A stretch of 10,338 nt of DNA from a virus (Duplodnaviria; Heunggongvirae; Uroviricota; Caudoviricetes): the IMG/VR virus record IMGVR_UViG_2534681772_000012, positions 1 to 10,338 of that record; one strand, given 5' to 3'. The position numbers and the translations under genes are program-made. Positions 1 to 10,338 of the stretch are shown here, one piece after another (position 1 is the stretch's first letter; every line of letters begins with the position of its first letter). The notes under the pieces were generated by a model. It searched no databases. It was not told the DNA's origin and saw only the letters and a program-made list of their open reading frames with translations.

Positions 1-70
1 TCACAAAAACGTAACCACACTGCCAATAGCCAGAGAAATATAATTTTTTTTGCGATTTTTTAGAACTGAC

Positions 71-130
71 ACAACGTGAAACAACGAGACACCACGACGA
101 ACAACGGCGAACAATCTGGAACAAACTTGA
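71..130. repeat. Six tandem 10-bp units with ACAACG-like core (ACAACGTGAA/ACAACGAGAC/ACCACGACGA/ACAACGGCGA/ACAATCTGGA/ACAAACTTGA), helical-turn phased; putative protein-binding array upstream of alpA
   Basis: Read directly from sequence: units start every 10 bp from position 71. Function is inferred from the phasing and the position in the AT-rich leader upstream of the alpA-like gene. Confidence 0.4.
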
Positions 131-410: not shown

Positions 411-599
411 GTGTTAAGCACAGATCGCTTTATACGTGAAAAAGAATGTCAGCAACTTACAGGCCTGAGCCGTTCATGTCGGTACCGCCTGGAAAAAACC
501 GGACAATTCCCATCACGGCGTAAGCTCGGCGGTCGTTCCGTTGGCTGGTCTTTATCCGAAGTTCTGGCATGGAAGGAAAGCTGCGAGGCAGTTCACTAA
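411..599 (+). CDS. alpA: AlpA-family (phage Vis/Xis-like HTH) transcriptional regulator
   Basis: C-terminal 63 aa of ORF 243..599 (MLSTDRFIREKECQQLTGLSRSCRYRLEKTGQFPSRRKLGGRSVGWSLSEVLAWKESC) match the AlpA/Vis family length and HTH pattern. GTG start at 411 follows RBS AGGGGG (401-406); the in-frame extension back to 243 has no RBS and looks like leader. Stop TAA 597-599. Confidence 0.8.
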   Translation: MLSTDRFIREKECQQLTGLSRSCRYRLEKTGQFPSRRKLGGRSVGWSLSEVLAWKESCEAVH

Positions 600-3056: not shown

Positions 3057-4468
3057 AAAGCGCACCGAACTTAAAAAAACAGCCTTACGACAAAATGACC
3101 GAAGTCATTATTTTTGCGGGTAGTGATGCCTGGGCGCACGCGAAACAATGGCAGGAGCAGGACGGGCGACTTGCTGGCGACAATGTTCCGCCTGTATGGC
3201 TGGGAGACAGCCAGCTTGACGAACTGGCAGGCCTGAAAATTATCGACGATGGTCGCTATTGTGTCCGACTGTACAAGGCAGGCCACATCAAGCCGTCAAA
3301 TATTAATGCCATCGGGCAAAAGCTGGCGGCGGCAGGTGTACGGGATGCGAATTATTACCCTGAGGGAATGCACAGTCAGAAGCTGGAGAACTGGCACGAC
3401 TACCTGCAACGGATCCGCGAACAGGCAGAGCGCGGGGAAATACTTACTGACGAGCAATACAGCCAGCGAAAAACCACGCTACCAATGAGCATTGGATCTG
3501 CAGGGTACGACACACAGCTTGATTATGTCGTTAAGGGCGTGATTCCGGCTAATTCATTGTGCAGCACATACGGCGCGAGCGGTTCCTATAAATCGTTCCT
3601 CGCGTGTTCCTGGGCGTGTCATGTTGCCACGGGTCGCCACTGGGGAGGTCGCAGGGTGGCGCATGGTTCGGTGATGTATGTTGTCGGTGAAGGTGGCATT
3701 GGTGTCCCCCGCCGTATCAAGGCATGGGAAATCGTTAATGATGAACGGGTGAAAAATCTGTACCTGGTAAACCGCCCGATTTTTCCTGCAGCCCAGTTTG
3801 ATGTTGATGAAATGGTTATCGCATCCCGCCAGGTTGAACGGGAAACGGGTAAACCGGTACGCATGATTATTCTGGATACGCTGGCGCGTTGCTTTGGCGG
3901 TAATGATGAAAATGACGCGCGGGATATGGGGGCGTTTATCCGTGGATGTGACGAACTGAAACGACGCACAGGGGCCACGGTGCTGGTGGTTCACCATTCC
4001 GGCAAGGATGAAACAAAAGGGGCGCGTGGTTCCAGTGCATTTCGTGCATCTCTGGACGCTGAGTACCGGATCCGCCGCGAAGGCGCGGACAGTGAGGCCC
4101 TGGTTATCTCCTGCACCAAAATGAAGGACGCGGAGGAACTGAAAGAGGCTGCATATGATTTACGTGTGGTGGAGCTTTTTACCGACGCTGACAAGGAGTT
4201 AATCACGTCGCTGGTGGTTGTGGATAAGCCGCGCCCACCCGTTGAACTGGAGCGCATCGAGGAGGCCGGAAACAAGACGGAGAATCACGCCGCACTATGG
4301 GGCTGTATCCGGTCACGCACACAGCGCGGCGATAAATGCACTATCCCGTTGTTGCGCGATGATATGAAAAAGCTGGGGTATGAGATGAAAAACTTCCGGC
4401 GCTGGCTGTACAAGCTGGAAAGAGACGGCGTTATCGCTATTGACGGTGATGATGTGCGCCCACTGTAA
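3053..4468 (+). CDS. Replication initiator / RepA-like RecA-fold (AAA_25-type) ATPase, 471 aa; no primase domain recognised
   Basis: Walker A-like GASGSYKS and Walker B-like hydrophobic run ending in D (RMIILDTL) in the central region; RBS AGGGG; an iteron array follows the stop codon immediately, as in PICI/SaPI-type pri-rep/ori units. Confidence 0.8.
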   Translation: MKSAPNLKKQPYDKMTEVIIFAGSDAWAHAKQWQEQDGRLAGDNVPPVWLGDSQLDELAGLKIIDDGRYCVRLYKAGHIKPSNINAIGQKLAAAGVRDANYYPEGMHSQKLENWHDYLQRIREQAERGEILTDEQYSQRKTTLPMSIGSAGYDTQLDYVVKGVIPANSLCSTYGASGSYKSFLACSWACHVATGRHWGGRRVAHGSVMYVVGEGGIGVPRRIKAWEIVNDERVKNLYLVNRPIFPAAQFDVDEMVIASRQVERETGKPVRMIILDTLARCFGGNDENDARDMGAFIRGCDELKRRTGATVLVVHHSGKDETKGARGSSAFRASLDAEYRIRREGADSEALVISCTKMKDAEELKEAAYDLRVVELFTDADKELITSLVVVDKPRPPVELERIEEAGNKTENHAALWGCIRSRTQRGDKCTIPLLRDDMKKLGYEMKNFRRWLYKLERDGVIAIDGDDVRPL

Positions 4469-6607: not shown

Positions 6608-6850
6608 ATGGCTACTCATTACACTGAACTCATGTCTGGCACTGAAGCACTGGTTACTACGCTGGGGATATTTTCAGCCAATAAAGGGGTAATACCTGCG
6701 TTTACGCCACTGATGCAGGAAGATGCAACTGGTGCGCTAGTGGTATGGGATGGAACGAGCGCAGGCAAAGCGGTTTATGTTTCCGCTGTACAAATCGACA
6801 CTGAACCGCCCCGGGAATCCTGGAGACTAAACTCCCTGAGAAAGAGGTAA
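6608..6850 (+). pseudogene. Lambda gpD-like head decoration protein gene, 3'-truncated by IS629-like insertion
   Basis: RBS AGGGGGAG; TPLMQEDATGALVVWDGTSAGKAVYVSAV matches the lambda gpD region [29 protein letters not shown]. Homology ends at 6801, where the IS inverted repeat begins; the last ~16 codons of the ORF are IS-derived. Confidence 0.7.
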
Positions 6851-6855
6851 ACAGG

Positions 6856-7182
6856 ATGACTAAAAATACTCGTTTTTCCCCCGAAGTCCGTCAGAGGGCG
6901 ATTCGTATGGTTCTGGAAAGTCAGGGCGAATATGACTCACAGTGGGCGGCAATTTGTTCCATTGCCCCAAAGATTGACTGTACACCGGAGACTCTGCGTG
7001 TCTGGGTACGCCAGCATGAGCGGGATACCGGAGGCGGTGATGGCGGGCTCACCACCGCTGAACGTCAGCGTCTGAAAGAGCTGGAACGTGAAAATCGTGA
7101 ACTGCGCCGCAGTAACGATATCCTTCGCCAGGCTTCCGCTTATTTTGCGAAGGCGGAGTTCGACCGCCTCTGGAAAAAGTGA
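6856..7182 (+). CDS. IS3-family transposase OrfA (HTH/leucine-zipper part), IS629-like
   Basis: 108 aa, [30 protein letters not shown]...[36 protein letters not shown]; ends at the frameshift window. Confidence 0.9.
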
Positions 7183-8069
7183 TGCCACTGCTGGATAAGC
7201 TGCGTAAGCTGTACGGGGTCGGACCGGTATGCAGTGAACTACATATTGCCCCGTCAACGTATTACCACTGTCAGCAACAGCGACATCATCCTGATAAACG
7301 CAGTGCCCGTGCGCAGCGCGATGACTGGCTGAAGAAAGAGATACTGCGCGTATACGATGGGAATCATCAGGTATACGGTGTGCGTAAAGTCTGGCGTCAG
7401 TTGTTACGGGAAGGAATCAGGGTAGCCAGATGTACAGTGGCGCGCCTCATGGCGGTTATGGGACTTGCCGGTGTTCTCCGGGGTAAAAAGGTCCGCACTA
7501 CCGTCAGCCGGAAAGCCGTTGCCGCAGGCGACCGCGTAAACCGTCAGTTTGTGGCAGAACGTCCTGACCAGTTGTGGGTGGCTGATTTTACTTACGTCAG
7601 CACATGGCAGGGGGTCGTCTATGTGGCGTTCATCATTGATGTGTTTGCCGGATACATCGTGGGGTGGCGGGTCTCATCGTCTATGGAAACGACATTCGTG
7701 CTGGATGCTCTGGAGCAGGCGTTATGGGCCCGTCGACCGTCCGGCACAGTCCATCACAGTGATAAAGGTTCTCAGTATGTATCGCTGGCCTACACACAGC
7801 GGCTTAAGGAAGCCGGATTACTGGCATCAACAGGAAGTACTGGTGACTCGTATGACAACGCGATGGCGGAGAGCATCAATGGCCTTTACAAAGCGGAGGT
7901 AATACACCGTAAGAGCTGGAAAAACCGGACAGAAGTGGAACTGGCCACACTCACGTGGGTGGACTGGTATAACAATCGACGATTGCTGGAAAGGCTGGGC
8001 CATATCCCACCGGCAGAAGCAGAAAAAGCTTATTATGCTTCCATCGGAAACGATGATCTGGCAGCCTGA
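7179..8069 (+). CDS. IS3-family transposase OrfB (DDE catalytic domain), IS629-like; expressed as OrfAB fusion by -1 frameshift
   Basis: 296 aa with DDE-type motifs ([31 protein letters not shown]); overlaps orfA in the -1 frame. Confidence 0.9.
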
Positions 8070-8123: not shown

Positions 8124-9698
8124 TCATCGCACACCGCCTTTTTCCTGATGAAAGCGGCAACGAGCAATCACGGATTGAATTTCAAATTGTGTGGTTTCAT
8201 GGATTGAAATAAGTGGATTGCGGGCGTTACCAACACTGTCTGAAATGGAAATCAATTCATCGACTTCTTTAACTACACTCTCCAGCACCGCCTGATGGTC
8301 ACCATCAGTAAAGGGGCGGAAATACAGGCAACCGTAGCAGCAGCGTACTTCACTGAATGGGCATTTGCCATCATCTCTGGAGCAACCGCCAATCCCATCA
8401 TGCAACTCATCACCGATTATGCCGACCACGCGCTGGTCTTGCCATTTCGTTGAAGAGGTCAGTTCACCAGTCAACATCATAGCCACCATGTTTTGCCATA
8501 CCGGATTGATACCCAATGCTTTGGCTCGAATCAGTGCCAGTGCAGGCGTCGCCAGAATGTAATACTTGGCAACAGTAAGGGAGCTATGTCCCAGAATATG
8601 CGCAATTTCCTCGGCGCTGACCCCTTGCATAGCCAGTGAATGCCCCACGTTGTGGCGCAAGTCGGTCGGGGTAATGGTTGGCAAAGCCGCTTCGCCACGC
8701 TTTACGGCTGCCTGATAATCTGGCGGACTGAAACAGAGGAAGGCCTTGTTAATCGCTCTGGACACATTAAACGGTGCAGAGTTACTAAATTCAAATAGCT
8801 TGCCATCAGGTTTTAGTTGCGCTCGCTCGATATAGTGCCTAATCAACGCGCCGATTTCAGCTGGAATCGCCAAAAACAGACGTTCAGTCGTTACGTGCCG
8901 CTGTTTGGCGTAAGGAAGGAGTAAGCTATATCGTATTAATCCGGTTTCGGAGTTTCGGGTATCAATACGTAAATCTTTTACCGCCAGCTTGGCCAGTTGT
9001 ACCGGTCGGGCACCGGTGACATACGTCAGTCCCAGAATTACTGCATCTCGCATGGTGTTCAGACTGTAGTTTTCGCCATACCGAATCGCCACAGCCATTT
9101 CAAACAAGCCTTTACTGATCATGTTTTTTTCGAGGGGATCCAGAACATGATCAATTTCCTGATAGATTCCCCAGTCATGGGAGTGCGGGCGAGGGATGAA
9201 TTCGAGGTCTTCATAATCTTCGAGGGTAAAACCAGGGAATGCTTCGGTACAGAGGATTTTTAGGCCGAAAATGATAAAGTAGAAATATTGAGGTTTAATT
9301 TCCTGAGTTTCGAGGTAATCTTTCAACACCGTAAAAGTGAAAGCAGATTTGCTTATGCAATGATCAGTTGCCAAAGACCACGCATGGAGTACCCCAGGAA
9401 CCTGAGCTGGACACTTGGCAGATGCATAATGGAAGCAAATATATTTGATTAATTGGTTGCTGATTTTATCCTGACGAAAGTGGGCATAGCAGCGGCTTCC
9501 TGAATAATCGAATACCCAACTGTCACTTGTTGAGCTGATATATTTGTCATCAAAATGATCTGCCGATTTAAGATAAATACTAACTGGTATATTAACCTTT
9601 AAAATACTCTCAACAAATACAGGTGTGTAAATGTTGCTGTTCGACGCATTTAACTGTTTATTGATTCGACTCATATGCACTCCATTCATCGCATACAT
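8124..9698 (-). CDS. Tyrosine recombinase / phage-integrase-family protein, large (516-524 aa) with Cys-rich C-terminal region
   Basis: Catalytic-motif pattern in the central part: GARPVQLAKL (Arg box), DLRHNVGHSLAM (H-x-x-R), LGHSSLTVAKYYI (His/Tyr nucleophile box). The best RBS (GGAG) precedes the third in-frame ATG at 9674, so the true start may be 9674. Stop is 12 bp from the IS629 end. Confidence 0.75.
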   Translation of the reverse strand: MYAMNGVHMSRINKQLNASNSNIYTPVFVESILKVNIPVSIYLKSADHFDDKYISSTSDSWVFDYSGSRCYAHFRQDKISNQLIKYICFHYASAKCPAQVPGVLHAWSLATDHCISKSAFTFTVLKDYLETQEIKPQYFYFIIFGLKILCTEAFPGFTLEDYEDLEFIPRPHSHDWGIYQEIDHVLDPLEKNMISKGLFEMAVAIRYGENYSLNTMRDAVILGLTYVTGARPVQLAKLAVKDLRIDTRNSETGLIRYSLLLPYAKQRHVTTERLFLAIPAEIGALIRHYIERAQLKPDGKLFEFSNSAPFNVSRAINKAFLCFSPPDYQAAVKRGEAALPTITPTDLRHNVGHSLAMQGVSAEEIAHILGHSSLTVAKYYILATPALALIRAKALGINPVWQNMVAMMLTGELTSSTKWQDQRVVGIIGDELHDGIGGCSRDDGKCPFSEVRCCYGCLYFRPFTDGDHQAVLESVVKEVDELISISDSVGNARNPLISIHETTQFEIQSVIARCRFHQEKGGVR

Positions 9699-10085
9699 GG
9701 GAAAAGGTTGATTTCAGGGCTTCGTTATCAATCACAATTCGCTGAAGATTGGCCGTATTAGCCTGCTGAGATAGAAATCTTTTAGCGTAAAGATCAGGCA
9801 TATGGCTATTGTGACTCCAACCGCCAAGTAGCCGTAATTCATCCTTGGCTTCATCCATCAATCCAACGATAGAAAAGTCTATGGCTGCCAAGTGTGAGTT
9901 GGCCTTAATTTTTTGAAGTTTATCACGATAAATACGTTGAAGTGTTAAATAAGCCCAAGTATGCCGCGTTATATGAGGCGAGATGCTTTCAATGGCATCA
10001 TAATATTCATCTTTTTTATATTCAGGATACTGCACACTCATAATGTCATCAATACGGGTAAAGATATCATAGACTGCATGGTATG
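9658..10085 (-). pseudogene. C-terminal catalytic fragment of a second tyrosine recombinase, 5'-truncated by IS2
   Basis: PHITRHTWAYLTL (H-x-x-R box) and LLGGWSHNSHMPDLYAKRF (His...Tyr box) present; N-terminal domains absent. The first ~9 codons of track ORF 9658..10113 (MSGDSGGQS) are encoded by the IS2 terminal repeat. Its 3' end overlaps the start of the downstream recombinase. Confidence 0.65.
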
Positions 10086-10338
10086 TAGACTGGCCCCCTG
10101 AATCTCCAGACAACCAATATCACTTAAATAAGTGATAGTCTTAATACTAGTTTTTAGACTAGTCATTGGAGAGCAGATGATTGATGTCTTAGGACCGGAG
10201 AAACGCAGACGGCGTACTACACAGGAAAAGATCGCTATTGTTCAGCAGAGTTTTGAACCGGGAATGACGGTCTCCCTTGTTGCCCGGCAACACGGTGTGG
10301 CAGCCAGCCAGTTATTTCTCTGGCGCAAGCAATACCAG
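10086..10338 (+). mobile_element. IS2 (IS3 family) left end, partial; continues beyond the window
   Basis: TAGACTGGCCCCCTGAATCTCCAGACAACCAATATCACTTAAATAAGTGATAGTC... matches my memory of the IS2 terminal repeat and leader; followed by the IS2 orfA start. Confidence 0.85.
10177..10338 (+). CDS. insC: IS2 transposase OrfA (InsC-like), 5' partial at window edge
   Basis: ATG 10177; translation [54 protein letters not shown]... matches IS2 OrfA as I recall it; ORF open to the window end. Confidence 0.8.

Follow-up and report, generated by a model that had tools for sequence, protein, structure and literature searches.

Excisionase-class proteins bind tandem repeats spaced by one helical turn, and often do so at att as well as at a promoter (PMC7498355, PMC3936717). 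Apl has five such sites at att and seven at pR-pL (PMC7498355), and Cox boxes, at least six of them at a spacing of 10-11 bp, are found at attP, at Pc and at P4 PLL (PMC3936717). In P4, Vis is both excisionase and regulator and represses the int promoter, and P4 Int also represses its own promoter (PMC7286903). Among the Gram-negative PICIs, AlpA of EcCICFT073 activates its own promoter, PalpA, and not Pint, and is needed for induction and excision (PMC6092414, PMC11773190, 10.1101/2022.09.08.507074); helper phages turn on alpA transcription independently of SOS through an inducer that was not named (PMC6092414; we found no newer identification), proteins of the AlpA family and phage Xis proteins can complement one another in a different PICI (PMC11773190), and the origin of replication is located after pri-rep (PMC6092414). 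The attP of the helper-embedded PICIs (HE-PICIs) carries a doubled motif (tgTGTATTGCa x2; Tommasini et al. 2023) whose four half-sites suit one Int tetramer and which was stated to be absent from other PICIs; no 10-bp arrays were reported in the same work (PMC10111431). Here we describe an array of six phased 10-bp repeats that follows int in a PICI of Escherichia coli, a position for which the PICI literature that we found describes no array. It is a previously undescribed candidate for the known class of phased operators of recombination directionality factor (RDF) type, and AlpA is its most likely binder.

The stretch of DNA analysed (the window) is 10,338 nt long, and over the first 700 bases it matches E. 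coli TW10590 with 100% identity. In the RefSeq annotation of the identical TW10590 stretch, the 3' end of int, with its stop codon (41-43), falls at positions 1-43 (+); the gene encodes a P4-type tyrosine integrase of 409 aa with Arm-DNA-bind_3 and Phage_integrase domains (Pfam), the remainder of which lies upstream of the window. It is followed by alpA at 411-599 (+), which encodes the proposed array binder (62 aa, PF05930, E = 2.7e-18), and the remaining genes of the window encode a DUF4222 protein, an AAA_25 RepA-type helicase, an SSB and a capsid-E protein (Pfam). With co-oriented int and alpA, then a replication module and phage capsid-type genes, and with a PICI att site, the element is a Gram-negative PICI (a phage satellite) of the EcCICFT073 family, situated between abgR and smrA. 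EcCICFT073 carries the array as well (L013 3187-3246), and its Int and AlpA proteins are identical to those of one of the other islands compared (L002).

An IS3-family element at 6856-8069 (and 6608-6850) breaks the island just past a shortened head-decoration gene, and the ALIL frameshift pseudoknot within this element (7137-7253) was the sole match to known RNA families. The TW10590 island, otherwise identical, is intact at the IS3 position, and the window thus comes from another strain with a decayed island. Beyond the IS, a second tyrosine recombinase of 524 aa (8124-9698, minus strand) and an overlapping 151-aa ORF (9658-10113, minus strand) probably belong to a different mobile element. 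After alpA comes a 396-aa ORF (652-1842), with an overlapping YlcI/YnfO-family gene on the other strand (1359-1664); RefSeq has no plus-strand gene there, a related island has an antA/antB antirepressor at that place, and the ORF is probably a decayed gene.

The array occupies positions 70-129 (+) and consists of six exact 10-bp units (CACAACGTGA AACAACGAGA CACCACGACG AACAACGGCG AACAATCTGG AACAAACTTG), each with an ACAA core and a G-rich spacer. It is real and non-random, with phasing far beyond chance. Tandem Repeats Finder called a period of 10 at 68-114; lag-10 identity across 61-140 is 0.61-0.68, the top value of the 10.3-kb window (mean 0.26, sd 0.066), and its maximum of 0.68 belongs to 70-bp stretches that start at 64-68. 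The pattern AACAA-N5-AACAA-N5-AACAA, with two mismatches at most, has four matches in the window, all within the array (0.08 expected), and four or more matches were reached in none of 200 shuffles. The initial annotation had described six phased 10-bp units over ~60 bp, in a P4-like element, from the letters at 71-130 (ACAACGTGAA ACAACGAGAC ACCACGACGA ACAACGGCGA ACAATCTGGA ACAAACTTGA); the letters, Tandem Repeats Finder, lag-10 identity and shuffles confirm the first point, and the P4-type integrase with its two Pfam domains agrees with the second. The core needs amendment: a repeated core exists, but the proposed ACAACG is present in only three of the six units, the best register is 70-129 and the conserved core is (A)ACAA. 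The description of the array as lying upstream of alpA holds only loosely, for it begins 27 bp past the int stop codon and ends 281 bp before the alpA start at 411. A coding sequence over the array was considered and dropped: RefSeq annotates no gene at the 63-aa reverse-strand ORF found there (1-192), and a 1-bp indel inside the array in related islands contradicts coding.

Between the array and alpA, three predicted elements can be recognized. The first is an IHF-consensus site on the minus strand at 151-163 (AATCAACTTTTTA = WATCAANNNNTTR), 22 bp downstream of the array, which is the sole exact consensus match in the 10.3-kb window (0.53 expected per window); an exact match stands at the equivalent place in L001, L002, L004 and EcCICFT073 and a one-mismatch variant in other islands, and the site is kept in the six-unit array subtype. 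The second is a hairpin at 221-250 (+; AAGGCGUAAAAA / UUUUUAUGCCUU, stem GGCGUAAAA / UUUUAUGCC), located between the array and the predicted alpA promoter, whose fold (-12.9 kcal/mol, z = -3.5) is conserved across islands. One stem position, read by eye (the automatic alignment mis-registered the stem), varies among islands as G-C / G-U / A-U, consistent with an RNA of the plus strand, and the hairpin may be a terminator or insulator against read-through from int. The third is a predicted sigma-70 alpA promoter on the plus strand, with a -35 element TTGCCA at 320-325, an extended -10 element TGnCACAAT at 340-348 and a second predicted -10, CACAAT, at 363-368; the region 320-368 was the only promoter-like site that the consensus scan found, and TTTGCCA is invariant in the int-alpA spacer alignment. 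The array lies ~190 bp from this predicted promoter. Three weak phased units at 333-362 (+; AACACCCTGA CACAATCCGA CGCACCACAA), which agree with the array in core type and orientation, overlap this promoter; a PWM run scan matched these three units in L002, L003 and L013, the window copy being one unit weaker.

Alignment A1 compares the region between int and alpA in seven islands, which occupy four integration sites (abgR, roxA, ilvG/comM and tqsA). All seven hold AACAA cores at a 10-bp phase and differ in the spacers: over the four units that align in register, identity is 0.98 in the ACAA core columns and 0.70 in the spacer columns, with an intergenic mean of 0.82. A run scan returned five to six units at the post-int place in 11 of 11 type I islands (E. 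coli at four integration sites and one Shigella, with EcCICFT073 among them), and the conserved arrays comprise 28 distinct unit sequences; unit counts were picked with a PWM made from the arrays themselves, and the identity of core versus spacer columns is the sole unbiased measure. Cores that stay invariant while spacers drift point to sequence-specific reading and argue against a decaying relic, and on this comparative evidence the array appears to be functionally constrained. The six-unit subtype occurs in 150 of 5,426 complete E. coli genomes and is annotated in none of them, and the window-type alpA allele in 893 genomes; contigs sampled at one genome per species provided three related loci, two of which were unusable. 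The array is present only in these islands. It is common to islands with three unrelated replicases (RepA helicase, DUF927 and primase) and lies ~2.9 kb from the replicase gene; iterons would sit beside the replicase and vary with it, and since the array is unchanged next to each of the three, the repeats are not iterons and a replication origin was dropped from consideration.

The motif of the array recurs, inverted and with its phasing, in both att arms. On the P' arm, between the att core and int, the four-unit array cTTGTTccaa cTTGTTccac gTTGTAcccc cTTGTGcaat is followed by 3 bp, by GGTGTAGTTAAT GGTGTAGTTAAT, by 22 bp and then by the int ATG; on the P arm, close to attR, the doubled GGTGTAGTTAAT motif is found again, preceded there by three TTGTx units. 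In every island scanned, phased runs of at least four units occur at the P' arm and the post-int place only. A P-arm run of three units was present in each of the three islands whose sequence was read to the right end, and other three-unit runs are few and weak, the recurrent one overlying the predicted alpA promoter. The P' arm is almost identical between islands at different att sites. RDF-type operators comprise at least three direct repeats one helical turn apart, are served by a small DNA-binding protein of excisionase fold encoded by the element, and share their motif with repeats beside the arm sites at att; here there are six units at exactly 10 bp, the island encodes AlpA, and the motif stands beside presumed arm sites in TW10590, CFT073 and other islands.

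The doubled GGTGTAGTTAAT motif is found once per att arm and nowhere else in the island. In TW10590 its two copies lie at L001 2768-2791, ~1.2 kb upstream of the array, and at L008 14950-14973, ~9 kb downstream, with centres at -88 and +145 from the att identity block (AATATCGTGA, 10 bp); no copy is near the array, the closest in the window having two mismatches and lying 8 kb off. Integrase arm-type sites are located in the attP arms, ~150-200 bp from the crossover, whereas 1,435 bp separate the start of the array from the middle of the identity block, and the positions of P4-type arm repeats are occupied by GGTGTAGTTAAT x2 and not by the array. Of the functional suggestions in the initial annotation, the general one, helical phasing of the sort that Xis/Vis-type (and Cox-type) proteins use for cooperative binding, is supported, and the conservation beside alpA in homologous islands that it proposed to look for was found in 11 islands. 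Its link to att is right insofar as the motif recurs in the att arms, but the array itself, 1.43 kb from the att block, is not att-proximal. The suggested place at an int promoter is contradicted by the position of the array downstream of int, and the suggested role of arm-type repeat fits instead the doubled 12-bp GGTGTAGTTAAT, which is confined to the two att arms and positioned like the P4 arm repeats.

Indeed, the att region as a whole resembles that of P4, which is likewise a satellite with a P4-type Int; in both, doubled 12-bp arm repeats lie close upstream of the int start codon and recur on the other arm. On either side of the core, the P4 record has an adjacent pair of 12-bp repeats (TTGGGGGCATAA x2) annotated as 'attP arm sequence repeats', and a 4-unit 10-bp array abuts the int-proximal pair; this xTCC array is the only such array in P4 (0.05 expected). 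The xTCC array and the three annotated 'ori type 2 repeats' upstream of vis are at 3974-4006 and 9176-9205 of the P4 record (L023). Cali and colleagues are said to have found in 2004 that Vis binds two boxes between P4 int and the core. Vis is a homologue of alpA and, as noted above, an excisionase as well as a regulator (PMC7286903). The two systems differ in motif, which is xTCC in P4 and ACAA here, and in organization, as in P4 a long distance separates vis from int, and PLL, with its helper Cox boxes, serves vis, whereas alpA here directly follows int, and the upstream array, unlike PLL, carries the island's own att-arm motif.

The doubled motif also has a counterpart in the HE-PICIs, in that both have two co-oriented doubled 12-bp motifs at comparable distances from the core: the centres of the P4 arm repeats are at about -75 and +134 and those of the HE-PICI motif at -81 and +132 (PMC10111431), compared with -88 and +145 here. 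The agreement in position with P4 and HE-PICI makes the doubled GGTGTAGTTAAT motif, by analogy, the best candidate for the Int arm sites and suggests that the 10-bp arrays are something else; to judge from the sequences, the chromosomal PICIs share the doubled-motif layout of the HE-PICIs with a different sequence. Unlike the islands described here, however, the HE-PICI 11capE (E. coli NRG857c) has int and alpA 1 bp apart (L015 2439-2441) and no post-int array, an arrangement that fits read-through of alpA from helper late transcription rather than a regulated promoter of its own.

The AF2 model of AlpA (pLDDT 87) has as its best PDB match the GIsul2 excisionase (8C3T, TM 0.84, 38% identity), followed by RdfS (8DGL) and then Pukovnik Xis, TorI and BldC; judged by this model, AlpA is an excisionase-type winged-helix (wHTH) regulator. 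The Pseudomonas aeruginosa AlpA antiterminator and its ABE resemble it in name only. That protein is larger and Q-like, with eight helices, and loads onto RNA polymerase at a single GGGACG between -35 and -10 (PMC9371919), and the analogy was dropped on fold (not PF05930), size, motif and placement.

We hypothesize that the array is an AlpA operator of the Cox/Apl/Vis kind that serves autoregulation of alpA, a proposal for which we consider the chances to be evenly balanced. By analogy, AlpA is the most likely binder, and we infer that it would act on the alpA promoter from ~190 bp upstream. AlpA protomers would line up head to tail on the array, one per helical turn, and bind cooperatively, as do Xis, Cox, Apl and Vis; lambda Xis on X1-X1.5-X2 and the BldC and RdfS filaments similarly place head-to-tail winged-helix protomers on direct repeats, one per turn, with the difference that the three lambda Xis sites are on one arm, whereas six sites here are outside att and further arrays are on both arms. 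At att, AlpA would be the recombination directionality factor, on phased arrays that flank the core next to the presumed Int arm repeats, and alpA would have the post-int array as its distal operator. A helper phage would trigger the first transcription of alpA and little AlpA would be made; cooperative filling of the six sites would then provide a switch-like positive feedback on alpA. A bend of IHF type may bring the array complex to the promoter-proximal sites ~190 bp off, and the array may also block or modulate transcription leaving int. Both of the reported roles of AlpA would be explained if it recognized a single motif at att and ahead of alpA.

Comparison with the P2 Cox boxes (at P2 attP, Pe-Pc and P4 PLL) and the 186 Apl operators supports the general form of this proposal and marks its weaker points. 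Cox and Apl act on five to seven direct repeats 10-11 bp apart, and the array has six at 10 bp; both are small winged-helix RDFs that bind cooperatively and bend DNA (PMC3936717, PMC7498355); and both use one motif at att and in the promoter region, matched here by the sister arrays in the two att arms. They differ from the present case, in which binding is predicted, in that the protein here belongs to the Phage_AlpA family (PF05930) and the motif is ACAA, in that their operators are over or next to the promoter while the array is ~190 bp from the nearest promoter-like site, and in that published data on AlpA point to activation of alpA and not to repression. The distance to the promoter-like site, with a conserved hairpin in between, counts against the AlpA operator, as does the behaviour of the att-arm arrays in islands with other AlpA alleles.

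These alleles bear on the choice between AlpA and the integrase as candidate binder. Type II islands, at the cspD site of 384 genomes including E. coli 042, encode an AlpA of 69 aa whose recognition helix reads CRTTRYELEK, as opposed to SRSCRYRLEK in type I. Their post-int array, GAATATCGGA AAATATCTGC AAATATCTTC (AATATC x3; L016 2218-2247, L020 2346-2375), has the strand, phase and place of the type I array and shares four of six core positions with it (AAyAwC), the core being AATATC rather than AACAAC. The att arms of the type II islands are unchanged, with TTGTTCG (GAACAA-type) arrays and GGTGTAGTYAAT x2 on both arms. Two further loci, L022 (CRTTRYELEK) and L149 (CRTTRYLMEK), have an extra gene between int and alpA and, just before alpA, two GTGATATCAC palindromes (at L022 2674-2706 and L149 2383-2420); their att arms still bear GAACAA-type arrays. 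The post-int array, in other words, shifts from AACAAC to AATATC with the AlpA allele, while the att-arm arrays stay as they are. From the sequences, it looks as if operator and regulator had changed together, and a post-int array that changes with the AlpA allele favours AlpA as its binder. Conversely, att-arm arrays that are constant despite differing AlpA proteins appear to track the int/att module, and either these arrays are bound by something else or the specificity of AlpA is relaxed at att.

This last observation leaves room for the alternative in which the integrase binds the array through its N-terminal arm-binding domain, the post-int copy being an extra Int site that couples the level of Int to alpA/int expression or allows int to be looped out between inverted arrays. 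The integrase does possess an Arm-DNA-bind_3 domain, the array motif is present in both att arms, the att-arm arrays are constant over three AlpA alleles that share one integrase clade, and P4 Int has a precedent for regulation in the repression of its own promoter (PMC7286903). The att-arm arrays are absent, moreover, from the HE-PICI, whose integrase clade differs; however, the AlpA helix of 11capE differs as well, and since both proteins and both motifs differ, 11capE does not discriminate AlpA from Int. We nevertheless consider an integrase site unlikely. In both position and form, the counterpart of the P4-type arm repeats is the doubled 12-bp motif and not the 10-bp arrays, the four half-sites of the doubled motif fit one Int tetramer (PMC10111431), the doubled motif is absent near the array, and the array is 1.43 kb from the core. 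Furthermore, beside an unchanged int, the post-int array varies with the alpA module, and a distant lineage (L146) keeps two phased CTGTTTC units (TGTTTC) beside a different doubled motif, TGGTCCAAA x2, which weakly suggests, from this single lineage, that the 10-bp motif is separable from Int.

A different possibility is that the array is a helper-sensing cis-element, on which a helper-phage protein, such as a helper excisionase or RDF, lands and switches on alpA in the manner of P2 Cox at P4 PLL; a helper protein of excisionase type would nucleate on the six sites, either by itself or in a filament mixed with AlpA. This would suit the SOS-independent activation of alpA by helpers through an inducer that is not named (PMC6092414) and the cross-complementation of AlpA-family and phage Xis proteins in another PICI (PMC11773190), and the three 10-bp 'ori type 2 repeats' upstream of P4 vis match the cox-box consensus TTAAA(G/C)NC(A/C). 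If true, the array would be the PICI counterpart of P2 Cox at P4 PLL and the target of the helper inducer, tied to an AlpA/Int architecture with three arrays, which couples induction to excision. We think this quite improbable, because the att arms of the island itself also bear the motif, and it is hard to see what a helper protein would do there, because several different phages induce EcCICFT073, and because a search of phage genomes for similar arrays found none; an exact phased-motif scan of viral contigs gave 120 contigs that look unrelated, many of them giant-virus bins.

Somewhat more doubtful still is a site for a host factor (for example of OmpR/ArcA type), a tract of intrinsically curved DNA or a decaying duplicate of an att arm. 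Response regulators bind direct repeats of 10-11 bp, phased A-rich cores can curve DNA, and the array repeats the att-arm motif in inverted orientation; the invariance of the cores while spacers drift across islands, the spacing of exactly 10.0 bp over six units and the confinement of the array to these islands all speak against these explanations. We consider it highly improbable that the array acts at the RNA level, as a Rho or Hfq site in the int 3' UTR, or serves as replication iterons: the C- and A-rich array does lie just past the int stop and before a hairpin, but its motif is on the opposite strand in the untranscribed att arms, its period is exactly one DNA helical turn, the same array accompanies three unrelated replicases, and the published PICI origin is after pri-rep (PMC6092414).

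The array and its two sister arrays together constitute a concrete candidate operator, with an ACAA core and a 10-bp phase, that is carried by the model island EcCICFT073, and they offer a testable handle on AlpA action and on helper sensing in Gram-negative PICIs. The P4-type attP layout of doubled 12-bp arm repeats and a 10-bp array now extends to the chromosomal PICIs, and is useful for defining functional attP sites and for engineering PICI-based delivery vehicles.
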